A stretch of 64,000 bases of DNA, taken from the NCBI GenBank assembly GCA_964621445.1, contig CAZUNO010000005.1:106922-170921 (forward strand), read 5' to 3'. A program made the position numbers and the translations under genes. The notes under the pieces are model-generated. The model searched no databases, was not told where the DNA came from, and saw only the letters and a program-made list of their open reading frames with translations. This document shows, in pieces, positions 11,049 through 25,656 of the stretch (positions within the stretch are counted from its first letter, which is position 1; each line of letters starts with the position of its first letter). Origin of the DNA: Candidatus Hadarchaeota archaeon. Its GTDB lineage: Archaea; CAYQAE01; CAYVLA01.

Positions 11049-12194
11049 ATGAAGATTCTCATCGTGCCGGCCATTGATTGGTTTACGGCCCTGGAGAACA
11101 GGGTTCACCACCTAGTTAGATGCTGGCAGGAGAATCACGAGATACACGTCGTGCACCTGCCCCTGGGAGGGGAACCGCTTAGAGAGCCTGGTGGAGAGGT
11201 CATGCATACCTTCTCGACGGCCAGGACCAGCAGCCTGCTAACCTATTACATTATGAACTTCATTCCCCAGGTGCTTCAGATAGTCCGGCTAATCAGGTCC
11301 AACAACATAGACCTGGTGGTTACCACCAACCTATCAGCCGGCACCGCGGCCATACTTGCGGCAAGGATATGTAATGTGCCCTCGATATTCGACTACTGTG
11401 ATTACCTCCCGGCATTCTCTCATTATGCCGGCGTGTCATCAATCCTGCAACCCATATTGGGGTTCATCGGCGAACTGCTGACCATACTCAACTTCAGGCT
11501 CTCGGAGGTTACCGTGGTCATCGGTAAAAGGCTGATGGAGCATGCCCAGGACTACTCCGACGCCGTTCTCGAGGTCCCGAACGGGGTCGATGAGCGGAGA
11601 TTTAGGGTCAAAGAGGAGTGGCGCCCAGGGGATAACCCGGTTCTGGGATATGTAGGAATACTTGAATTCTTCGTTAACCTGGGAACGGTCATCGACGCGC
11701 TCAAGTACCTTGATCGTTTTCGCCTGGTGGTAGTGGGCTCAGGTCGGGAGATGGGTAACCTGGTAGAATACGCCCAAAGGAGCGGGGTGAAGGAGAGGGT
11801 AAAGTTCGTGGGAAGGGTTCCTTACCAGAGGGTAGGGCGTTGGATCCAATCCATGGACGCGTGTCTGCTCCCTTTCTCCAGTAGCGACCTGACGGAATCC
11901 GCCCTGCCCCTGAAGGTACACGAGTACGCAGTTTGTCGCAGGCCGGTCATTGCCTCACCCCTTTTCGAGGTGGTTAGGATGTTTGGCGAGCTCCTACTAT
12001 ACGCCCGGGGACCCAGGGAGATCGCTTCGAAGGTGCAAAATCTTCTAAGCAATAGGACTGAAACTAGAAGAAGGATAAGGAGGGCCTACATCCGAGCTGC
12101 CGTCACCTACAGATGGAGCCGGTTCGGATCCCGATACGAAAAAGCATTTTCCAGGGCCCTGGGCGGGGGTGAGGCGTATAGACATGAACATTAA
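11049..12194 (+). CDS. Glycosyltransferase family 4
   Basis: VPNGVD, GYVG, GRVPY, PLKVHEYAVCRRPVI. Confidence 0.88.
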   Translation: MKILIVPAIDWFTALENRVHHLVRCWQENHEIHVVHLPLGGEPLREPGGEVMHTFSTARTSSLLTYYIMNFIPQVLQIVRLIRSNNIDLVVTTNLSAGTAAILAARICNVPSIFDYCDYLPAFSHYAGVSSILQPILGFIGELLTILNFRLSEVTVVIGKRLMEHAQDYSDAVLEVPNGVDERRFRVKEEWRPGDNPVLGYVGILEFFVNLGTVIDALKYLDRFRLVVVGSGREMGNLVEYAQRSGVKERVKFVGRVPYQRVGRWIQSMDACLLPFSSSDLTESALPLKVHEYAVCRRPVIASPLFEVVRMFGELLLYARGPREIASKVQNLLSNRTETRRRIRRAYIRAAVTYRWSRFGSRYEKAFSRALGGGEAYRHEH

Positions 12195-13977
12195 TCCTGT
12201 TCGGGGAAATGGCCTAAGCCTAGGGCTGCTCCTAATACTGATATTGGCCCTCTCGGCAACTACCAGGCTTTACTTTCTCACCACCTGGGATCAAATTCCC
12301 ACCAGTGACCCTTATCACTTCATCGGATGGACCTCGGGCGTTGACCAATCAAGTCATCTTGATTTCCCTGGATCCGAGGACAGGGCCTACGGACAATATC
12401 CGGACGGTTACCCAATTCTACTTCAATTTCTCTCCACCACGGGCGATATCTCGCTGGTCCCCCTATCCAAGTTCCTTCCGGTCATCGTCGGATCGATGTG
12501 CACCCTGCCCGTCTTCCTCGTGTTCCGGAAATTGACGCGGAGGTCCCTCTATCAGCTCGCCGGGACGGTGATGGTGGTCTTCTCCCTGGCATTTCTCAAA
12601 TACACATCGGTCTCGATCCCCAATATGATGGGCCTCTATCTTTTCTGTCTCGCCGCATGGATTGCCCTCAGATTGGATAGGCAGGGAAAGAGGATGTTAG
12701 CCATGCTCGGCTTCTTGGTGCTAGCGGTATCACGCATTCATTACCTTTCCCTGGTCTGTATCGGGGTCCTCCTGGCCATAGTCATTTCCAGGAAGCTGAT
12801 GGTCAGGGCATCCGGGCAGGAGTTCGACCCCCGACGTATGGCCTTTATTCTCATAGTGGCCCTTGTGGCGGGAATCTTGGCCTGGACCGCCGCGTACCGA
12901 GTGATGTACATGCTCTACGGAATAGACATCACCAGCCAGCCGCCGGCCAGGTTGAGCCTGGTTCTAAGCTTCCTGGGCTATCCCTTGATATTCGGGGTTT
13001 TACAGATACTTTTCGTACCCCTGGGCTTAATTCACCTGGCAAAGGACTATATCTCCAGGCACTTCACGAGCGAGGATGGAAATCTCAACCTCGATCCAGT
13101 TCTGATCTTGGCCCTGTTTTTGGTGTTCCTCCTATTTGCCTCTGGTTTCCTGAAGGTGGAGTACTACCCCTTTAGATTCAATTGCTTTCTGATCCTTCCC
13201 CTGGTCATGGTATCGATCCTTGGCCTTCTGTTGGCCAGGGGGCTCTTGATGGATTCTCCGCTCCGTGCTTTTGCGTGGATGGTGATCCCCCTCACCGTTT
13301 TGATGGTCATCATTCAGCCCCTGGCGGCCTCGATCATTCCATTTGACGATGGAGAACCCTTCCTGCCCTGGGAACAGGAATACGGTGAAACCGAGATGCC
13401 GGCATTGAGAAGCTGGATGGAGGAAAAGCTGCTTTGCACGGAGTTCAATCGGAGCGGTGGCCCTGAGTCTAAATCCCTTCCCCGCCGGGAGATGGTCATG
13501 GCCGATTGGGTTCGGTCAAGGGCCCTGAACGCCTTCGGGTTCGACAGCGTCCACATACACTGGTGGTTTTTCCAGGGTTGGTACGACCTCCAGAGGGAGC
13601 CCTTCAGGTATAGAAGCCTTGACATCTATGCCGGGAACTCAAGTCAAGCTCTGGATAGACTCGCCGGGCTTTACCTGAGGAAGGCCACCGGGAGCACCGG
13701 TGACTGGTATTATCATTACAAGTACATATACACCAGCAAGTGGCTGGGCGAGGTCATGGTCAATGACTTCGGTCTACAGCCTAACTTCACCAAGTTCGAC
13801 AACTATGATGGCTCGCTACTCTATGACTGGAGGCGTAGCTCTTCCCAGGGTGACAGGGTTATCGCCGAAAGCGAAAGGGCTCTTGGAGCACCTTACATGC
13901 TGCCACCATTCGACCGGCTTTACTCCTCACCAGGGGTCGGGATTTACCTATTCCCGGATTTGAAAAGGGTCATCTAG
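12169..13977 (+). CDS. Polytopic membrane protein, probable GT-C fold glycosyltransferase
   Basis: More than 10 hydrophobic segments, DPYHF after TM1, YPDGY, soluble C-terminal domain; sits in the GT cluster. Confidence 0.6.
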   Translation: MRRIDMNINPVRGNGLSLGLLLILILALSATTRLYFLTTWDQIPTSDPYHFIGWTSGVDQSSHLDFPGSEDRAYGQYPDGYPILLQFLSTTGDISLVPLSKFLPVIVGSMCTLPVFLVFRKLTRRSLYQLAGTVMVVFSLAFLKYTSVSIPNMMGLYLFCLAAWIALRLDRQGKRMLAMLGFLVLAVSRIHYLSLVCIGVLLAIVISRKLMVRASGQEFDPRRMAFILIVALVAGILAWTAAYRVMYMLYGIDITSQPPARLSLVLSFLGYPLIFGVLQILFVPLGLIHLAKDYISRHFTSEDGNLNLDPVLILALFLVFLLFASGFLKVEYYPFRFNCFLILPLVMVSILGLLLARGLLMDSPLRAFAWMVIPLTVLMVIIQPLAASIIPFDDGEPFLPWEQEYGETEMPALRSWMEEKLLCTEFNRSGGPESKSLPRREMVMADWVRSRALNAFGFDSVHIHWWFFQGWYDLQREPFRYRSLDIYAGNSSQALDRLAGLYLRKATGSTGDWYYHYKYIYTSKWLGEVMVNDFGLQPNFTKFDNYDGSLLYDWRRSSSQGDRVIAESERALGAPYMLPPFDRLYSSPGVGIYLFPDLKRVI

Positions 13978-13981
13978 AAAC

Positions 13982-14974
13982 TTAACGGAGGTCCATAGCC
14001 AACAGTCCCTTAAACGCCCCCGTGATAAGGAAAAATACCGGTAATAAGAGATCCTTGAACCAGGAAAGCTCCACCACCTCTATCCTCCATAGTCGGACTC
14101 TCCCTCCCCCATTTTCCACCGAAGCCAGCAGCTTTCCGTCCTTTGAGAAGGCCATGTCATATGGATCGTCAAATCCCGCTTCTCCCGGCACGCCGCTAAA
14201 TCCCCCCAGGTGATCCCCATTTGAGTTGAAGAAATATATCCTGTCGGCTCCAAAATCTGCGACCGCCACCATGCCATTTTCTGACACATCTATGCCCACT
14301 GGTCGGGTAAATCTAAGCCTGCTCTGTATATCCCATATGGTGGAGTTGAAGGAGAAATCGGGATTGAAAATTTGAACCCTCCTCACATATCCCTCGGGTT
14401 CCAGATATGCGTCAACCACCAGAAGCCGGCCGTGGGAATCGAAGGACAGGTCCATAGGGCCATCGAAATCCCCTGCCTCGGTTCCCCATTGGCCGAATTC
14501 CTTTATGAAGCAGGGGCACGGTCCCAGGATCTGGATTCTCCTGTTCATGGAGTCGGCAACCGCAGTAAGACCACCCTTCACGTCTATCCCCCAGGGAACC
14601 CTAAACTCGGCTTCACCCGAACCCTCCAAGCCCAGGGTTCCATATTCATCCAGCTCCGCGTCAAGGATCAGCACCCTGTGATTCCCTGTATCGGCTACCC
14701 AGATTCTGCCCTGATCATCAATGTCAATGCCGCGTGGATGTCTCAGGCCCCCCGAATAGCTTGAATTCAATGAAAGGTCCTGATTGAGTATTATCACCCG
14801 GTCATTTCCGGTATCGGACACTACCCAGAGCCCATCCGGGTGATTGGTGATGCAGGTCGGTGAATTGAGAACGATTTCAGAGGTGGCAACCGGAACTAGG
14901 GTAAAATTCATCGTACCTGAAACGGTGGCCAAAAACCCCAGTGATATCAGGGCCAAGAGCAGATATCTAGTCAT
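13982..14974 (-). CDS. Secreted NHL-repeat beta-propeller
   Basis: Repeats PRGIDID..IWVADTGNHRV, VADSMNRRIQ; signal peptide and hydrophobic C-terminal tail. Confidence 0.88.
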   Translation of the reverse strand: MTRYLLLALISLGFLATVSGTMNFTLVPVATSEIVLNSPTCITNHPDGLWVVSDTGNDRVIILNQDLSLNSSYSGGLRHPRGIDIDDQGRIWVADTGNHRVLILDAELDEYGTLGLEGSGEAEFRVPWGIDVKGGLTAVADSMNRRIQILGPCPCFIKEFGQWGTEAGDFDGPMDLSFDSHGRLLVVDAYLEPEGYVRRVQIFNPDFSFNSTIWDIQSRLRFTRPVGIDVSENGMVAVADFGADRIYFFNSNGDHLGGFSGVPGEAGFDDPYDMAFSKDGKLLASVENGGGRVRLWRIEVVELSWFKDLLLPVFFLITGAFKGLLAMDLR

Positions 14975-16664
14975 CCTTACCCATCATCTCCCAAATTTCT
15001 CTCTGGGTGTTCCAGATATCCTCTACCTGGAGCTGGTCCCCATTCTCAACCAGGGAAGAGGAGAAGGAATGAGGATAGCTCCACCAGAGCAAGGTGCTCA
15101 CGGGGTATTTCCGAGCCACCTGGTAGTATAGAAGGGTCTCCTCTTGATTCGGCAGCAGTAGTGACCAGTCCCTCTCCACCTCCAGGTCGTCGACCCAGAG
15201 GGAGCCCGAACCCTCCAATGCGGTAAGTGTAACTCGATTGAAGGTCCCGGGAAGGACGGCGTTTGGCAATCGGGTTTGGATATCCCCATCAAAACGGAAA
15301 ACCCATCTATTTGCATCAACGTTCGCATCCAAGGTCAGGGTATGCCAGCGTCCGGGAGCCACATCGATGGAGCAGTTGACTATTTCCGCATCCCTCCCGG
15401 TGTGAACAAGTAGGTCACGGCCCTGAATTCCCAGCCTTACCGGGGATGAGTTGGTATCTCCCAGGGTTATCCACACCGCGGGGGAGGATGAAGAGGTGAT
15501 GAAACGGAATTTGACCCTAATGCTGTGAACCGTTGGGTAGGAAAATACGGCCGTGGAGATGCCATCGCCTCCCTCCAAGAGCAACGAGCGGTTCCCACGG
15601 TATTTTCTGGCCCCCGTTACCCCAGTACCCCCGCCGAACTCCCATTCCTCAGCAATTCCACCGTCCTCGAATCCCTCATCCAGGTATAGACGGGGGTCCC
15701 TGTTATCACTATCGAAGAACACATCCGCCCCGGGATCATATGCCTGGCCCACAACCACTACCGGTTTCCCGAATGACGAGGCCCAGGAAACATCACTCTC
15801 CACTATGGATTTATCCCCTGTATGCCTGAAATCATCGGGCTCTTCATCATGATAGGCATAGAAGTAGGGATCAACGCCGATTAAGTCCAATTTTTGGGGG
15901 AAATCGCCCACCCATTGATCGTATCTAATCAAACTCCCGTTCTTGGACCTGTATGAGTAGTTATTCCCCTGACGATGAAACATCACCAGAACCGGCTTGT
16001 CCCAGAAAACATCCCTGGCCGCATCCACCATGGAATCGAGCATTTCCTGGGTGACGTTGTTGGGACGGACCCATGGTTCATCGTATACATAGACCGCCAT
16101 GATGTCCTCCCTGTACCTTCGAAAGAGCTTCTCGTAGACCCGGAATTCCTCCATTAAGAGTTCCGTGGCCTCCGGGACCGAACAAGGCCTGGGATCAAGA
16201 AAATATACGTACTTGGATATTCCATGAACTAGCAGTATCATCTTAAGGTCATTTTCACGACAGGATTCGAGGTATTCGGGATCATATAGATACCCCCGGG
16301 AATTGGTCACCGAGTGAGGGACCACAACTACATTTGACTGCTGACCGGCATTTTCCAGGTGTACCAGGTTCCTGCTCCAGTCCCTTCCCGATAGTTTTGG
16401 ATCGGAAGCCAGATTTTCATAAAATTCCATTGAGATGAATCTATCATATACCTGAAAATAACCATGGTATTGAAGGCTGGTCTCGTTCCCGGTCAAATTA
16501 TCTGAACTTCCCCTGGCCACCTGTTCCGAGGGCTCTAATAGCATACTGGGGAGGAGCAGTGCGATCAGGAAGAACGATATCGAGACGATGAAAACCACCA
16601 GCACTTCCTGCCGATCCATCGGGATGTCCTCCTTGAACTTCTTATCAAGGTCCATTATTATCAT
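14967..16664 (-). CDS. Membrane-anchored putative glycoside-hydrolase barrel with inserted lectin/CBM-like domain
   Basis: VYVYDEPW, DLIGVDPY, PVVVVGQAY, LLWWSY; beta-sandwich insert from EGFEDG to LWVDDLEV. Confidence 0.55.
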   Translation of the reverse strand: MIIMDLDKKFKEDIPMDRQEVLVVFIVSISFFLIALLLPSMLLEPSEQVARGSSDNLTGNETSLQYHGYFQVYDRFISMEFYENLASDPKLSGRDWSRNLVHLENAGQQSNVVVVPHSVTNSRGYLYDPEYLESCRENDLKMILLVHGISKYVYFLDPRPCSVPEATELLMEEFRVYEKLFRRYREDIMAVYVYDEPWVRPNNVTQEMLDSMVDAARDVFWDKPVLVMFHRQGNNYSYRSKNGSLIRYDQWVGDFPQKLDLIGVDPYFYAYHDEEPDDFRHTGDKSIVESDVSWASSFGKPVVVVGQAYDPGADVFFDSDNRDPRLYLDEGFEDGGIAEEWEFGGGTGVTGARKYRGNRSLLLEGGDGISTAVFSYPTVHSIRVKFRFITSSSSPAVWITLGDTNSSPVRLGIQGRDLLVHTGRDAEIVNCSIDVAPGRWHTLTLDANVDANRWVFRFDGDIQTRLPNAVLPGTFNRVTLTALEGSGSLWVDDLEVERDWSLLLPNQEETLLYYQVARKYPVSTLLWWSYPHSFSSSLVENGDQLQVEDIWNTQREIWEMMGKDD

Positions 16665-18204: not shown

Positions 18205-20226
18205 TTAGAGCCTGTAGCGGTGCCTACTCAGCAGTTCCTCTATCAGACCGGTATTCCATCCCCCGATGTCCTCCTGGATGCCAACCCGGCCTATCCGACC
18301 CCCCTTCCGAGAAATCCAGTCTACATGTTTGGATTGGCATGATGAGCATCGGGAATGAAGACCATCAACGATGCTTCCGCATTTCAGGCACAGGGAAAGG
18401 TCCTGGGTATATGTGAATAATGGAACGCCGCTCTTCGCTATCCTAGCCGTCTCTCTCCAAAGGACCTCCCTAGGAGGCCTGCCAACCAGATTCACATTGA
18501 AAATTGCTCCTCCCGAAAGTAGGGAGCAAAGAGGCTGTTCGAAATTCAATCTTTCCTCAAGGCCGATTTCCGCTGAAGCCCTGATCTGAGCTCCTTGGGT
18601 GTAGTATACGGAGCCCTCGGAGGATTTGCCCTGCGCCACATACCTTGATCGGAATCTCTTCCCGTCTATCTGAGCCAGCCTGTTATTGGAATCGTATGAG
18701 GGGGACTGACAGATGTGAAAATCCGATTCACTTTCTGCCGAGAACTCCCTGGTTGTTTCTTTCATTCTTTCCAGGACCTTATTGGCAAAATCCCTAGCAT
18801 TCCGGTTCTGGTGTAATTCGGATTCGGTCATGATCTTAACGGCCTCGTTGAGTCCCAAAATGCCAATCATCATCCTCTGCTCGTCCAGTCTCAGGTATTT
18901 CGACCTCCCGAAACTCTGATCAGCAAAGCGTAATGAACCCTCATCCATTCGCATCGCCAGGACCTTCTTCTTCAGCGAAATCAGGTCCCGTACTAATTCC
19001 ATTCTGGAAACCAGCATCTCAAAGAACCTGCTCACATTTCCCTGGCTATCAAGGGCCACCCTGGGCAGATTTACGGTGGCTTCCTGAATTATACCCCCTC
19101 GAAAATCGGGGTAGTAATCGCCCGTTCCCTCAACAATTAGACCGGGCTCCACGCAACAATTCAGAGACGAGATTCCATCAGCCATCCCGTTAAGGAACAG
19201 GGGGGAACCAAAGCGAGAGGCCAGACCACATGCCAGGAGGTATTCTTCCTCGGAATCCTTCATGAATTCTGGATCCAACTTTATCTCTATGGCCGGGAAG
19301 GGAAACGGCTTTCCCGTGTAGTCCCCTGAAAGGAGAACCTCTAAGAGCTGACGGAAGATTTTAACAGCTTCATCATGGTACTCCGAATATGTCTCCGGCC
19401 CGATCATGCCTCCCGGCTTTACGGCCTCCACATCTTCAAGGACCTCCGGGATTCCCGGAATCAATCCTACGGAGCTAAGTACCATCTGCCCACCTCTAGC
19501 CACATATTGCTGGCTCATCTCGTATATGAACATCTGGCACAACTGCCTGATTTCGGTCCCGTTCTTTCCCTCAACATAAGGAGCCATGATCACATTGAAG
19601 TGATTGAAGGAGTGACCTCCTGACCAGAAAACCTGGGAAGCGGCGAGGGCCTTGGCGGCATGAAAGATGGCAACCTCGGCGTGCTTGGCAGGCCCGGCCA
19701 CCGCGGTATCCCTGCCCGAACCATCAACTCTCAATCCCTTTCTGAGAAAGAATCTAAGATCGTGGGCAAAGCAGTATGGCCGGGTTACGAAGTACTCCAG
19801 GTCGTGTATGTGTATCAGCCCTCTCCTGTGGGCATCGGCGATCTCGGGTGGGATAACGGCAGAAAGAGCGTAATGGCGTGCAATTACATCTCCCATGTGC
19901 TTGTGTATCGATTCCGGGTTGAAGGCAGTACTGCTATCCATTCGGTGCCCACTGGTCAGGATCCGGTTAACGTCGTAGATGGGGAGCCCTAGTCTCTGGT
20001 GGTAGGCTGCTAGGTCATCGAAACCGTATTCCAGAAGCTTGGCATTTACCATTTCACGTATCATGGTAGTGGTAGGGGATACCCCTATCCGGCTCAGGTA
20101 GCTTTCGACCTCATCCGCGATCTTCTCGGCCACCCTAACCGGGGCATTGGCCTCGTTCACCAACGCATTAACGATCTTGCTCTTGCTGAAATCCTCAATG
20201 GTATCATGGGATGTTCTGACCTTCAA
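18205..20226 (-). CDS. Class III ribonucleotide reductase (NrdD) paralogue with degenerate catalytic motifs
   Basis: ATP cone (KVRTS..FSKSKI), IHIHDL, RPYCF, VNLPR, GLNE and Zn ribbon CLKC/CSSC are present, but RxxGY reads RKGGR, TPAE reads SPSY and YTNS reads YTQG. Confidence 0.88.
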   Translation of the reverse strand: MKVRTSHDTIEDFSKSKIVNALVNEANAPVRVAEKIADEVESYLSRIGVSPTTTMIREMVNAKLLEYGFDDLAAYHQRLGLPIYDVNRILTSGHRMDSSTAFNPESIHKHMGDVIARHYALSAVIPPEIADAHRRGLIHIHDLEYFVTRPYCFAHDLRFFLRKGLRVDGSGRDTAVAGPAKHAEVAIFHAAKALAASQVFWSGGHSFNHFNVIMAPYVEGKNGTEIRQLCQMFIYEMSQQYVARGGQMVLSSVGLIPGIPEVLEDVEAVKPGGMIGPETYSEYHDEAVKIFRQLLEVLLSGDYTGKPFPFPAIEIKLDPEFMKDSEEEYLLACGLASRFGSPLFLNGMADGISSLNCCVEPGLIVEGTGDYYPDFRGGIIQEATVNLPRVALDSQGNVSRFFEMLVSRMELVRDLISLKKKVLAMRMDEGSLRFADQSFGRSKYLRLDEQRMMIGILGLNEAVKIMTESELHQNRNARDFANKVLERMKETTREFSAESESDFHICQSPSYDSNNRLAQIDGKRFRSRYVAQGKSSEGSVYYTQGAQIRASAEIGLEERLNFEQPLCSLLSGGAIFNVNLVGRPPREVLWRETARIAKSGVPLFTYTQDLSLCLKCGSIVDGLHSRCSSCQSKHVDWISRKGGRIGRVGIQEDIGGWNTGLIEELLSRHRYRL

Positions 20227-20283
20227 CTAGGTTCCCCTGCTTACGATCATTTCGACATGCGCGGTAACGATTGTAAGTAACAA

Positions 20284-20307
20284 TATATAAAAGACCCCCT
20301 TTATAAA
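20284..20307. promoter_or_regulatory. Back-to-back TATA boxes for the NrdD paralogue and the wHTH operon
   Basis: TTTTATATA on the minus strand (20284-20292) and TTTATAAA on the plus strand (20300-20307). Confidence 0.6.
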
Positions 20308-20332
20308 CTAAACGTGTCAACCAGGTGAAGTC

Positions 20333-20806
20333 ATGCTCTCCAGGGCCGATATCCAGCTCCTTCTTTCGCTTCGCGGATCCTTCAAGACCCGAAAGGAGCT
20401 GGACTCGGATAACCCGGTTCACCGGGACACACTCTCCAAATCCCTGCGCAGTATGGAGAAAATGGGATTTATCCTGAAGACACCCAGGGAGATGGATGGT
20501 AGGTATACGGCCGAGTTCAACCTCACCAGAAGGGGAAGGGATATCACCTCAAACCTGGAAAAGGCCCAACTTGACGAAATCCCGGAAACCGGTCTAACCG
20601 ACCTCAGGTTGAGAATCATGCGCTACTGCCTCCAGGGACGGAGGTTCGGCGAGGTACGTGAAGAACTGGATATAGCGGAACCAAACGTGGATCGTCATTT
20701 AAAGATCCTCCTCAATACCGGTCTTGTGGAGAAGAGCGATGATCTCTATCTAACCACCGATATTGGTCGAAGGCTGATCGAGTCCCTCGAGGAAGCCGGC
20801 GGGTAG
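20333..20806 (+). CDS. Tandem winged-helix (ArsR/HxlR-like) DNA-binding protein
   Basis: Two wHTH units: TLSKSLRSMEKMGFI..FNLTRRGR and NVDRHLKILLNTGLVEK..YLTTDIGR. Confidence 0.85.
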   Translation: MLSRADIQLLLSLRGSFKTRKELDSDNPVHRDTLSKSLRSMEKMGFILKTPREMDGRYTAEFNLTRRGRDITSNLEKAQLDEIPETGLTDLRLRIMRYCLQGRRFGEVREELDIAEPNVDRHLKILLNTGLVEKSDDLYLTTDIGRRLIESLEEAGG

Positions 20807-22850: not shown

Positions 22851-23061
22851 ACAGGTCACCGTTTTCCTCTCAGCGGTGAAACCGAAATGCGATCAATAGC
22901 CTTGGTTCTGGATTCGGGAAGCATGTACCCCTTTCGGTCCAGTATCAGTCCTAAGACCATTTCGTTCGCCAGGGATATGACCCGGAAGACCGGGGACCCA
23001 ACGGAGGAAGACGACCGTAAGCCACTCATCCAAATGAAAGGGCTTGTCAGAGGTTATAGAA
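22851..23061 (+). ncRNA. Structured 5' leader of nrdD (cis-regulatory RNA candidate)
   Basis: Hand-folded stems: GGUGAA/UUCGCC, CGAAAUG/CAUUUCG, CUGGAU/GUCCAG, CCGG/CCGG, ACGG/CCGU, AAGCC/GGCUU, and UGAC/GUCA directly before SD GAGGU. Confidence 0.55.
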
Positions 23062-25158
23062 TTGTTGATAAAGAAACGTGACGGCAGGAAAGAGGAATTT
23101 AAACCATCAAGAATCGAGGCCGCGGTTTTCAAGGCCTTCTCTGCTACCGGGGAGGGAACGAAAAAGGACGCTAAGAAAGTCACCGCTGAGGTCGTCGAAC
23201 GGGCCGACCAGGAAAACGGGGTTCCAACCGTCGAAGGGATACAGGATCGTGTCGAGGAAACGCTGATGAGGATGGGCTACTTCCGAACTTCGAAGGCCTA
23301 TATAATCTATCGTCAGCAGCACACCGATCTCAGAGATGTGAAACGCATCGTGGAGGACCCCCAGGTTATTGAGTCCTACCTTAATCGCAGCGACTGGAAG
23401 GTCAAAGAGAACTCCAACATGACCTACTCCCTTCAGGGCCTGAACTGCTACCTTTCATCAAAGGTGGTCTCCAATTATTGGCTCAGGAAGATCTATCCGC
23501 CGGGGATAAGGGAACACCACCTGGCGGCGGATTTCCATCTTCATGACCTTGGTACCCTGGGCCCATATTGCGTGGGATGGGACATAAAGGACGTGCTCCT
23601 GCGCGGCTTCAGTGGCGTGCCGGGCAAAGTAACCTGCACACCGGCCAAGCATTTCAAGGTGGCACTGGGCCAGGTAGTCAACTTCCTGTACACCCTGCAG
23701 GGGGAGGCCGCCGGAGCCCAGGCCTTCAGCAACGTGGATACCTACCTGGCACCTTTCATACGCTATGATGGCCTGAGCTATAAACAGGTTCAACAGGCCA
23801 TGCAGGAGTTCATATACAACTTGAACGTGCCCACCAGGGTTGGTTTCCAGACGCCTTTCGTCAACTTCACCCTGGATCTCAAACCACCCTCCTTCGCCAA
23901 GGACGAGCCCGCCATTGTCGGGGGCCAGGCCAAGAATGAGCCAATCGGCGATTTCCAGGATGAGATGGACATGTTCAACCGGGCCTTTGGCGAGGTAATG
24001 ACCGCCGGAGATGGAGATGGAAGACCATTCACCTTCCCCATACCTACCATAAATATCACCAAGGATTTTGATTGGGATAATGAGAACTACTGGCCCCTGT
24101 GGCAGATGACTTCCAGGTACGGGATACCCTACTTCTCCAATTTCGTGAACTCCGATATGAGCCCTGACGATGTAAGGAGCATGTGTTGTAGGCTCCGGCT
24201 GGACAAGCGGGAGCTCCAGAAGAGAGGAGGCGGGCTATTTGGCGCCAACCCGCTTACCGGATCCATCGGGGTCGTCACCTTGAACCTACCCAGGCTTGGA
24301 TACCTCTCCGGGGACGAGAACGAATTCTACGAGAGGCTGGATGAGCTGATGGATAAGGCAAAGGATTCCCTGGAGATAAAGAGAAACGTCATAAACAACT
24401 TCACCGATAACGGTCTCTATCCCTACTCCAAGGTCTATCTCCAAGGTATCAAGGAAAGATACGATAGCTATTGGCAGAATCACTTCTCGACCATCGGCAT
24501 AATCGGGATGAATGAATGTCTGAGGAACCTGATCAACACCTCGTTGGTCACCACCGAGGGACGGGACTTCGCCCTGGATGTCATGGACCACATGAGAGAA
24601 AGGATATCACAATATCAGGAGGAAACCGGAGACATATTCAACCTTGAAGCGACCCCTGCAGAGGGGGCTAGCCATCGCTTGGCGAGAATAGACAATGCCG
24701 AGTTCCCGGATATAGTGACCGCCAACCGCGGCGGTGGAGAGTTCTATACCAATTCAACCCACCTGCCAGTGGACTACACGGGTAACCTTTTCGAGGCTCT
24801 GAGCCTCCAGGACGATCTCCAATGCAAATACACCGGTGGCACCGTTTTCCACGTCTTCCTCGGGGAAAGTGGACCTCACCCGGAGTCCCTGAAGAGATTG
24901 GTGGACAAGGTGACGAGCTCGTTCTCCCTCCCGTACTTCACCATAACGCCTACATTCAGCGTGTGCCAGGAACATGGGTATATGGCCGGAGAGCACCAAG
25001 AGTGCCCCAAGTGCCACAGGAGCTGTGAGGTATATTCCAGATCGGTTGGGTACCTGAGACCGGTATCGCAATGGAATGAGGGCAAGTCATCGGAATTCTT
25101 CCAGCGACGGACCTTTGACCGCAAGGCCGAGAAGCCGGTGGCCAAAGTAGTGGCCTAA
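23062..25158 (+). CDS. nrdD: Anaerobic ribonucleoside-triphosphate reductase (class III), intact motifs
   Basis: ATP cone IKKRDG, ENSN, HLHDL, YCVGW, RSMCCRL, EATPAEG, YTNS, YTGGTVFH, CxxH/CxxC, glycyl loop YSRSVGY; SD GAGGT 7 nt before TTG 23062. Confidence 0.96.
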   Translation: MLIKKRDGRKEEFKPSRIEAAVFKAFSATGEGTKKDAKKVTAEVVERADQENGVPTVEGIQDRVEETLMRMGYFRTSKAYIIYRQQHTDLRDVKRIVEDPQVIESYLNRSDWKVKENSNMTYSLQGLNCYLSSKVVSNYWLRKIYPPGIREHHLAADFHLHDLGTLGPYCVGWDIKDVLLRGFSGVPGKVTCTPAKHFKVALGQVVNFLYTLQGEAAGAQAFSNVDTYLAPFIRYDGLSYKQVQQAMQEFIYNLNVPTRVGFQTPFVNFTLDLKPPSFAKDEPAIVGGQAKNEPIGDFQDEMDMFNRAFGEVMTAGDGDGRPFTFPIPTINITKDFDWDNENYWPLWQMTSRYGIPYFSNFVNSDMSPDDVRSMCCRLRLDKRELQKRGGGLFGANPLTGSIGVVTLNLPRLGYLSGDENEFYERLDELMDKAKDSLEIKRNVINNFTDNGLYPYSKVYLQGIKERYDSYWQNHFSTIGIIGMNECLRNLINTSLVTTEGRDFALDVMDHMRERISQYQEETGDIFNLEATPAEGASHRLARIDNAEFPDIVTANRGGGEFYTNSTHLPVDYTGNLFEALSLQDDLQCKYTGGTVFHVFLGESGPHPESLKRLVDKVTSSFSLPYFTITPTFSVCQEHGYMAGEHQECPKCHRSCEVYSRSVGYLRPVSQWNEGKSSEFFQRRTFDRKAEKPVAKVVA

Positions 25159-25218: not shown

Positions 25219-25656
25219 ATGCCCCCGAGCCGCAGGGTCGTCATCCTTTGCATCTCAATGGTGGTTTTGTCAGCCGGCTGCCTTAACTCCAGTTCCCCGG
25301 GGAACGAGACAAATCAGACGCCGGGAGGGGAGCAGACAGAGGATCCGGGTAAGCCGATCTATTACTTCTTCTATTCGAATGGGTGTGGTGCTTGCGACCA
25401 GATGAAGGATACCACGTTGTCAAATCAAACGATCCTCCAGGCCCTTGAAAAGAACTACACCTTCAAGAGTCTGAACACAGGAAAGAATAGGCAACTAGCC
25501 GCTAGGTACGGGGTCAGGTACGTACCAACCAATGTTTTTGCCTATCCAAATGGGACGGTTATAGGAACTAAGGTTGGGGCCGTTGATCCTAATACATTCA
25601 TGGAGATGCTGAGAGTTGTCAGCGAATTCTACGTTGAGAACCCTCCTCTATCCTAG
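25219..25656 (+). CDS. Exported thioredoxin-fold lipoprotein
   Basis: Lipobox LSAGC, CGAC active site, YGVRYVPT cis-Pro motif. Confidence 0.85.
   Translation: MPPSRRVVILCISMVVLSAGCLNSSSPGNETNQTPGGEQTEDPGKPIYYFFYSNGCGACDQMKDTTLSNQTILQALEKNYTFKSLNTGKNRQLAARYGVRYVPTNVFAYPNGTVIGTKVGAVDPNTFMEMLRVVSEFYVENPPLS

Follow-up and report, generated by a model that had tools for sequence, protein, structure and literature searches.

Does a protein with the length and fold of a class III (anaerobic) ribonucleotide reductase (RNR), NrdD, remain a reductase when its hallmark motifs have been rewritten together, and if not, why has the gene been kept? This question is raised by a 64,000-nucleotide (nt) stretch of a Candidatus Hadarchaeota archaeon genome (contig CAZUNO010000005.1, positions 106,922 to 170,921; hereafter the window), which encodes such an NrdD homologue (hereafter the paralogue) as well as a canonical NrdD. 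To our knowledge, RNR catalytic subunits are regarded as obligate enzymes, and databases annotate every NrdD homologue as anaerobic ribonucleotide reductase. We find that the paralogue is best read as a selectively maintained, NrdD-derived pseudoenzyme: the catalytic losses recur across its orthologues, and these are under purifying selection. It is very probably functional in some capacity other than ribonucleotide reduction. The fuller statement, in which the maintained pseudoenzyme also acts as a nucleotide-binding sensor or regulator, is a proposal drawn from sequence patterns to which we give slightly less than an even chance.

An uninterrupted frame of 673 amino acids (aa) had been proposed by the initial annotation, with the ATP cone, HIHDL, the first active-site Cys (RPYC, C152) and the Zn ribbon retained. 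The frame was recovered at the same place, on the minus strand and with a TTG start codon, and all these retained elements, including the Zn-ribbon residues C613, C616, C627 and C630, are present in the window copy. The gene and its relevant parts are as follows:
18205..20226, minus strand: coding sequence (CDS) of the NrdD-derived paralogue P0001, 673 aa, TTG start, frame uninterrupted
20005..20223, minus strand: ATP-cone domain, residues 2-74 (PF03477), the most conserved portion within the paralogue clade
19927..19944, minus strand: flap motif RMDSST, replacing the canonical KENANL (NxN flap), from alignment
19801..19812, minus strand: HIHD, the triphosphate-binding HxHD motif, present in the window copy, from alignment
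19138..19164, minus strand: finger-loop tip LNCCVEPGL, residues 355-363, from alignment and AlphaFold2 secondary structure
18691..18711, minus strand: CQSPSYD, residues 506-512, replacing the canonical (I/L)QTPAES, from alignment
18337..18390, minus strand: Zn ribbon of the C-terminal domain (C613, C616, C627, C630), four Cys in 12/12 clade members
18283..18312, minus strand: degenerate glycyl loop SRKGGRIGRV, residues 639-648, with G643 aligned to the radical Gly

By sequence the paralogue is homologous to NrdD, and its predicted fold is confidently that of NrdD (ten-stranded barrel). It matches Pfam NRDD (PF13597) with 348 bits, and its cone matches PF03477 over residues 2-74 with 33.4 bits (gathering score 25.8). 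The AlphaFold2 model reaches a mean predicted local distance difference test (pLDDT) score of 89.1 and a predicted template modelling (pTM) score of 0.88, and its top Foldseek matches are solved NrdD structures. The fold is that of Prevotella copri NrdD (PcNrdD, PDB 8P23), with a Foldseek TM score of 0.68-0.73 and an E-value of 1e-28, and a profile alignment to the same protein gives an E-value of 1e-29. The general NrdD equivalog TIGR02487 is passed narrowly (334, cut-off 326.35), and the paralogue falls far under all subclass equivalog cut-offs (NF006126, 218.5 vs 548; NF006358, 201.6 vs 585). A PADLOC scan gave no defence-family match for the paralogue and only generic helix-turn-helix (HTH) matches for the neighbouring regulator.

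Orthologues with the same substitutions were looked for and found. A word-indexed search yielded 12 clade proteins of equal length at 60-69% identity, all sharing the set described below, with the next relatives at ≤ 46% identity over the full length. Residues were mapped in an L-INS-i alignment of this clade with 73 canonical sequences, and additionally with HMMER against 8P23. The canonical set was drawn from P0015-P0122 and limited to 655-725 aa, which leaves out the longer proteins with inteins. These archaeal NrdDs with a QCCR finger loop (Bathyarchaeia / Archaeoglobus-type) are 42-46% identical to the paralogue over the full length. Both they and the paralogue run from a degenerate VRTS-type cone through the barrel and the Zn ribbon to a C-terminal loop, both have YVARGGQ as loop 2, and their lengths are similar. 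QCCR/A is listed in PMC9669993 as the motif of the ‘NrdD3’ clade, to which this sister group may correspond. The paralogue clade differs from these relatives in that it has replaced all hallmark motifs, has a 6-residue insertion and stands on a stem of 0.7-0.8 substitutions per site.

The 73 canonical relatives keep ENAN, QCCR, TPAES, YTNS, GG...H..GE, SRITGYYQRV and WNxGK at 90-100%. They are ≥ 90% conserved in 292 columns, where the paralogue clade keeps 179, replaces 98 and is mixed in 15; with 98 of 292 conserved columns replaced, the rewriting goes far beyond chance. All the substitutions claimed at the outset occur in the window copy: ENAN to MDSS, TPAE to SPSY, YTNS to YTQG, GG...H to GG...N, RITGY to RKGGR and WN.GK to WNTGL. 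The change of GGQ to GGH is also there but is private to this genome, as the other 11 of the 12 clade members read GGQ. Across the clade, KENANL has become RM(D/E)(S/T/A)S(T/A), with M(D/E)(S/T/A)S standing for ENAN in 12/12. QCCR has given way to V359-E360 (each 12/12), followed at 361 by Ser (nine), Pro (two) or Gly (one) and then by a variable residue. QTPAES has turned into C506-Q-S-P-S-x-(E/D), YTNSSH into YTxGAQ, and WNxGK into WNxG(S/A/L/R). GG...H..GE reads GG...(N/D/E) with GE deleted, and SRITGYYQRV reads SR-x-x-G643, then Arg (five), Glu (four), Gly (two) or Ala (one), then the 6-residue insertion. The deletion of GE and the insertion after the Gly loop had been missed before. The mapping of RITGY to RKGGR is given by both L-INS-i and HMMER against 8P23; a smaller MAFFT alignment put the insertion elsewhere.

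One element had been misread: the ‘CC finger’ is not retained. In the alignment C357-C358 precede the canonical QCCR by 3-4 residues, and the Cys pair of QCCR falls on E360-P361. The canonical Q-C-C-R thus corresponds to V359-E360-P361-G362 in the window copy, and the thiyl-radical Cys is lost. In the AlphaFold2 secondary structure, strands 356-358 and 364-366 enclose a finger turn at 359-363, with which the alignment of the thiyl position to residue 361 agrees. C358 is restricted to this genome (1/12), and C357 occurs in 11/12, being Ser in P0010 and in the fragment P0014. Class III finger motifs are given as MGCR, MCCR, SCCR and QCCR in section 2.5 of PMC9669993. Finger residues 356-360 (nt 19147-19161, minus strand) read N-C-C-V-E in this genome only and (N/S/H/Q)-C-S-V-E in the others; the match to NxCxE, the finger motif of class I, II and O RNRs in the same source, is probably a coincidence.

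The functions of these positions are described for PcNrdD in PMC11226230. The radical initiator is Cys416 at the finger tip, the two flap Asn (NxN) contact the γ-phosphate and base of the substrate, the triphosphate is held by HxHD and the TPAE loop, and Glu581 of TPAE bridges substrate, flap and the Tyr after the radical Gly. Cys416 is replaced by P361 in the window copy and by Ser in most orthologues, Asn114 and Asn116 by D97 and S99, and Glu581 and Tyr712 by Y511 and R644, both variable in the clade. The equivalents kept are HxHD, the betaA Cys, Gln309 (Q247) and Gly711 (G643). Within the clade, HxH[DE] is intact in 8/12 members, and the betaA Cys (C152) is present in 11/12 (Ser in P0009, Gly in P0014). 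Position 511 reads Y, V, L, M, P, I or E, with an acidic residue one position later. The suggestion that the radical Gly might still be Gly was correct for the whole clade (G643 and the four Zn-ribbon Cys, 12/12), and its flanking residues are variable: the preceding residue is G, W, N or L, or deleted, the following aromatic residue is lost, and the glycyl radical fingerprint RVxG[FWY] is absent. Having lost its NxN flap and RVxG[FWY] along with the thiyl Cys and the Glu of TPAE, the protein has, we infer, ceased to be an RNR and is not a conventional glycyl radical enzyme (GRE) either.

A class III RNR that still works by an unusual mechanism is accordingly a very unlikely explanation. The window copy does have HIHD, the betaA Cys and G643 and scores just over the TIGR02487 cut-off, and PMC4493059 describes Thermotoga maritima NrdD (PDB 4COI / 4U3E) as an active RNR despite an Ile, and no Cys, at the finger tip of the crystal. 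This precedent means that a missing tip Cys alone is no proof of inactivity. However, T. maritima NrdD keeps SCCR, the Gly-Tyr loop and the substrate-binding motifs, whereas no member of the paralogue clade has any CC/GC-R motif. The clade has likewise lost the NxN flap, the Glu of TPAE and the Tyr next to the radical Gly; HxHD is not conserved in 4/12, the subclass equivalogs lie far below cut-off, and the genome has two other RNRs. The first of these lies in the window:
23044..25158, plus strand: canonical NrdD P0002, 704 aa (NF006126, 1054 bits)

This second copy had been said to have all the hallmark motifs. It keeps MCCR, TPAE, YTNS, GG..H, RSVGY and WNEGK, but reads ENSN and GAQ at the other two. 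The 3.21-Mb genome has no NRDD match besides P0002 and the paralogue. A class II RNR (PF02867; 720-aa frame, G000:C4:80813-82204) joins them, so the genome holds three RNR-family genes. One NrdG2-type activase, on another contig (C9), is its sole GRE-activase-like gene. The redundancy formed by canonical NrdD, NrdG2 and class II RNR counts in favour of a maintained pseudoenzyme.

What the former active site has turned into bears on a different explanation. It gains acidic residues at 97, 360, 512 and often 577, while three basic residues (Arg in QCCR, His in GG...H, Lys in WNxGK) are gone; given these gains and losses, the remodelled pocket is unlikely to hold a nucleoside triphosphate. Loop 2 with Q247 and its helix, which together link the specificity site to the active site, are kept. 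A neofunctionalised enzyme, possible though rather doubtful in our judgement, would use the acidic pocket (D/E97, E360, C506, S508, E/D512, G545) for new chemistry on a substrate that is not a nucleotide or not a triphosphate, either without a radical or with G643 and a relocated C357. Within the clade the new pocket residues hardly vary, C506 and S508 not at all, and G643, the Zn ribbon and (in 11/12) the betaA Cys are kept in a genome with one NrdG2 activase. Yet formerly catalytic positions vary, namely 361 (S/P/G), 511, 544, 644 (R/E/G/A) and the residue before G643. C357 is Ser in P0010 and P0014, the betaA Cys is likewise substituted in P0009 and P0014, the evolutionary rate of the catalytic half is 2.5-4 times that of the N-terminal half, and the conserved neighbourhood is without a dedicated activase or metabolic gene. 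Noncanonical radical enzymes are known in the superfamily from PMC11528403. The aminoacyl radical enzymes treated there (Ala, Ser or Thr for the radical Gly) also depart from RVxG[FWY] and are maintained, but in them it is the Gly that changes, while Cys, aromatic residue and cognate activase persist. The paralogue shows the reverse: the Gly is kept, the Cys, aromatic residue and substrate motifs are lost, and no dedicated activase lies nearby.

Outside a few metagenome contigs, the paralogue clade is known from one archaeal family only. A search of 41 archaeal genomes found it in G000, G001 and G003 only, all of family f1; these carriers are the genome of the window and two genomes of a second genus, and a fourth genome of the family (91% complete) has a canonical-type match only. 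A metagenome scan added eight further paralogue loci at 61-69% identity. When 1.84 billion representatives clustered at 50% identity were scanned exhaustively with HMMER, the clade came back as a single full-length cluster (1003 bits) plus a fragment; the match after these had 557 bits. The clade is monophyletic with a support of 100 in the Shimodaira-Hasegawa-like approximate likelihood ratio test (SH-aLRT), and it lies among the archaeal NrdDs with a QCCR finger loop; beyond its long stem, terminal branches are of ordinary length. Intein-containing relatives, which were excluded from alignments and trees for their length, match the N-terminal 250 residues of the paralogue at 55-57%, so the nearest canonical lineage may be among them.

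Is such a gene still under selection? Near-neutral dN/dS or decay lesions in orthologues would have spoken for decay, and apart from one truncated copy neither was seen. Nine full-length CDS and one partial CDS, from seven distinct lineages, contain no internal stops. By the Nei-Gojobori method, dN/dS in pairs with unsaturated dS is 0.126 for L031-L035 (dN 0.066, dS 0.52), 0.108 for L004-L031 and 0.095 for L004-L035. For more distant pairs, in which dS is saturated or nearly so, the ratio is 0.10-0.20, and dS was not computable for 7 of the 9 pairs involving the window. In the same genome pairs, dN is 0.11-0.31 for the paralogue, 0.03-0.08 for the linked canonical NrdD, 0.10-0.32 for the neighbouring HTH gene and 0.14-0.48 for a linked CCA-adding enzyme; the paralogue also stays under the dN of the linked thioredoxin-like gene. 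This comparison shows an ordinary constrained gene that evolves about four times faster than the true reductase. The paralogue is under purifying selection, and the earlier suggestion of selection for a non-RNR role is supported by the shared substitutions and a dN/dS of 0.10-0.20, to which the loss of the thiyl-radical Cys can be added.

A decaying or functionless duplicate, with its frame open by chance or because the duplication was recent, is hardly credible against this background. The catalytic half is relaxed and one copy, on a 1470-nt contig, is truncated, as decay would have it; but the frame is full-length and of equal size in seven lineages between which dS is saturated, dN/dS is low, and the TTG start codon and promoter/leader blocks are kept in 10/10 loci. 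The truncated copy, P0014 on metagenome contig L034, is 84% identical to P0010, is colinear with it to residue 379 and meets a stop after about residue 382. It also has S-I-H-E in place of HxHD, and may be a pseudogene or an assembly artefact.

Where the constraint acts was compared at matched divergence (mean pairwise identity 0.654 in the clade vs 0.642 in the canonical relatives). Residues 1-80 show an identity of 0.79-0.84 within the clade vs 0.49-0.65 in the canonical relatives, while residues 341-360, 561-580 and 641-660 show 0.50-0.63 within the clade vs 0.73-0.79. The dN of residues 96-260 is 2.5-4 times lower than that of residues 341-600. Constraint has thus moved to the N-terminal 260 residues (cone, linker and specificity-site half), and the catalytic half is relaxed. 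The formerly catalytic positions (361, 511, 544, 644 and the residue before G643) are the variable ones, and their neighbours are fixed in a new state. Besides the ATP cone and the linker, the N-terminal 260 residues include the helices and loop 2 from which NrdD builds its dimer interface and specificity site. Because constraint has shifted to the cone and the specificity-site half, the sensor and regulator options are favoured: the paralogue would be dimeric, would still bind allosteric nucleotides (ATP/dATP and/or deoxynucleoside triphosphates (dNTPs)), and would act as a sensor or regulator of dNTP supply.

Several observations weigh against a catalytically silent nucleotide sensor. V359, E360, C506, S508, G545, S99 and C230 are replacements that are nevertheless invariant in the clade, and such invariant new pocket residues fit a pocket that still binds or converts something. 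An invariant G643 with four invariant Zn-ribbon Cys is odd for a non-radical protein, and a re-registered finger loop could present C357, 3-4 residues before the canonical thiyl position. Nucleotide binding by the cone is itself an assumption, since R-T stands for K-R: the cone has V-R-T-S where well-studied cones have V-K-R-D, a form shared by the canonical sister group, and Lys7 and Arg8 are the basic pair of the PcNrdD cone in PMC11226230. The L034 copy stops early, and the whole inference is one from sequence.

The paralogue also has a conserved setting. In 8/8 non-window loci with flanking sequence, the order is thioredoxin-like gene, nrdD, CCA-adding enzyme, LigT (2',3'-cyclic phosphodiesterase) and HTH regulator, with the paralogue divergent from the regulator. 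It lies about 2.7 kb from the canonical nrdD in every locus with enough flank. A radical S-adenosylmethionine or metabolic gene was not found in this conserved neighbourhood. The neighbouring features in the window are:
20227..20332, no strand: putative divergent promoter/leader of 106 nt, with conserved blocks across loci
20333..20806, plus strand: double winged-helix regulator (Pfam HTH_5, HVO_A0261_N, TrmB, MarR), syntenic and divergent
25219..25656, plus strand: thioredoxin-like gene downstream of the canonical nrdD (Pfam Thioredoxin_2, Thioredoxin), syntenic

This linkage lends some weight to a further explanation, in which the paralogue would by analogy be a non-catalytic partner subunit of the canonical NrdD, the dead half of a heterodimer that supplies regulation or stability. 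Such a subunit would resemble yeast Rnr4, which partners Rnr2. The two genes are linked in 9/9 lineage contexts seen, and the dimer-interface half is the conserved half of the paralogue. However, the paralogue is only 26% identical to the NrdD of its own genome and about 30% identical to the P0123-type NrdD of the other lineages, and the canonical nrdD was swapped here for another subclass while the paralogue stayed. The low identity and the swap weaken the partner model, which we consider unlikely, even though the PcNrdD dimer has one active monomer at a time (PMC11226230).

Sequence conservation in the intergenic region persists between lineages whose synonymous sites are saturated. It contains a block CATGTCGAAATGATCGTAAGC at 20239-20259, which ends 12-17 nt ahead of the paralogue start codon, and a TATA-like block at 20274-20293. 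A second TATA-like element at 20300-20307 faces the HTH gene. An inverted repeat, CTTAY-N28-RTAAG, spans both blocks and has one covarying pair. Rfam gave no match at E ≤ 1 in 20100-20400. A genome-wide scan for the leader motif with ≤ 2 mismatches returned nothing but its own site at one mismatch, and five sites at two; no regulon emerged from it. The conserved blocks suggest that the region may be a promoter with an operator or leader, for which the neighbouring regulator is a candidate binder.

The nrdD site of this locus has a history of its own. It carries a P0002-type gene (MCCR finger) in the window and a P0123-type gene in all other lineages (L003:3091-5412, L004:3094-5325, L028-L033). 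In P0123-type NrdDs the finger reads SSCCS and the Gly loop is followed by a long insertion. These NrdDs are 84-94% identical to each other, vs 40-70% for the neighbouring genes, and the P0002-type is 26% identical to them. It looks as if nrdD was replaced in situ in this genome. In L030 (1109-3340) the P0123-type nrdD is split in two open reading frames (ORFs), whereas it is intact in the 99.9%-identical locus L028; an error in sequencing, or else a recent frameshift, probably accounts for the split.

The paralogue itself might have arisen from the adjacent P0123-type nrdD by local duplication. P0123-type proteins likewise read Cys-Ser at 357-358 and carry an insertion at the corresponding site behind the Gly loop. 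The approximately unbiased (AU) test does not reject a joint clade (p = 0.757), the constrained tree being 15.4 log-likelihood units better under LG+G4, with long branches on both sides. Those long branches also count against this origin, as does the number of derived residues shared with the P0123-type (3 of 53), compared with 4 of 53 shared with the unrelated P0002.

Elsewhere in the window, two large ORFs at 12169-13977 (plus strand, 602 aa) and 14967-16664 (minus strand, 565 aa) went unmatched in Pfam, NCBIfam and PADLOC. They adjoin glycosyltransferase and NHL-repeat genes and are syntenic in related loci.

RNR homologues that have lost RNR chemistry are known among the small subunits, namely yeast Rnr4 and R2lox. 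Selection maintains them in a non-catalytic or altered role. They offer an analogy only; they derive from the class I radical-generating subunit and not from a class III catalytic subunit. A literature full-text search found no description of catalytically inactive NrdD paralogues, and the recent GRE reviews and PMC11528403 do not cover them in the parts available.

The paralogue clade may not stand alone. A crude motif screen of 267 full-length relatives, in which proteins with ≤ 2 of 4 motifs were flagged, picked out 39 non-clade proteins. Of these, 30 were aligned; they are without the finger Cys pair and the Gly-aromatic motif, and some are without the entire C-terminal (glycyl radical) domain. 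In a tree, 29 aligned motif-less proteins form at least 6 separate groups, each beside a different canonical lineage. The source names of nine that were looked up are anaerobic ribonucleotide reductase or hypothetical protein, from archaeal metagenome-assembled genomes (MAGs). Among the motif-less proteins within P0137-P0269, which are representatives from the HMMER scan, Thr stands at the aligned radical-Gly position in P0169, and Ala in P0209. Several of the motif-less proteins are single-member clusters, so some may be artefacts. Motif-less NrdD-like proteins may be a recurrent and undescribed phenomenon.

The existence of several other motif-less NrdD-like groups suggests that the issue is wider than one family. 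As a tentative and at present improbable generalisation, dead NrdD homologues would be a hitherto unrecognised and recurrently evolved archaeal class, in which the scaffold is recycled as an allosteric (d)NTP sensor that monitors or tunes deoxynucleotide supply; the clade described here would be its best-conserved member, with its own conserved promoter/operator and a linked winged-helix regulator. The clade by itself, in which thiyl Cys, substrate flap and glycyl radical fingerprint have gone while constraint on the allosteric half has tightened, would be the first case found of a class III RNR scaffold put to another use, and it would call for caution in inferring anaerobic dNTP synthesis from NrdD matches in archaeal MAGs. 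It would also provide a natural separation of the allosteric machinery of NrdD from its catalysis.

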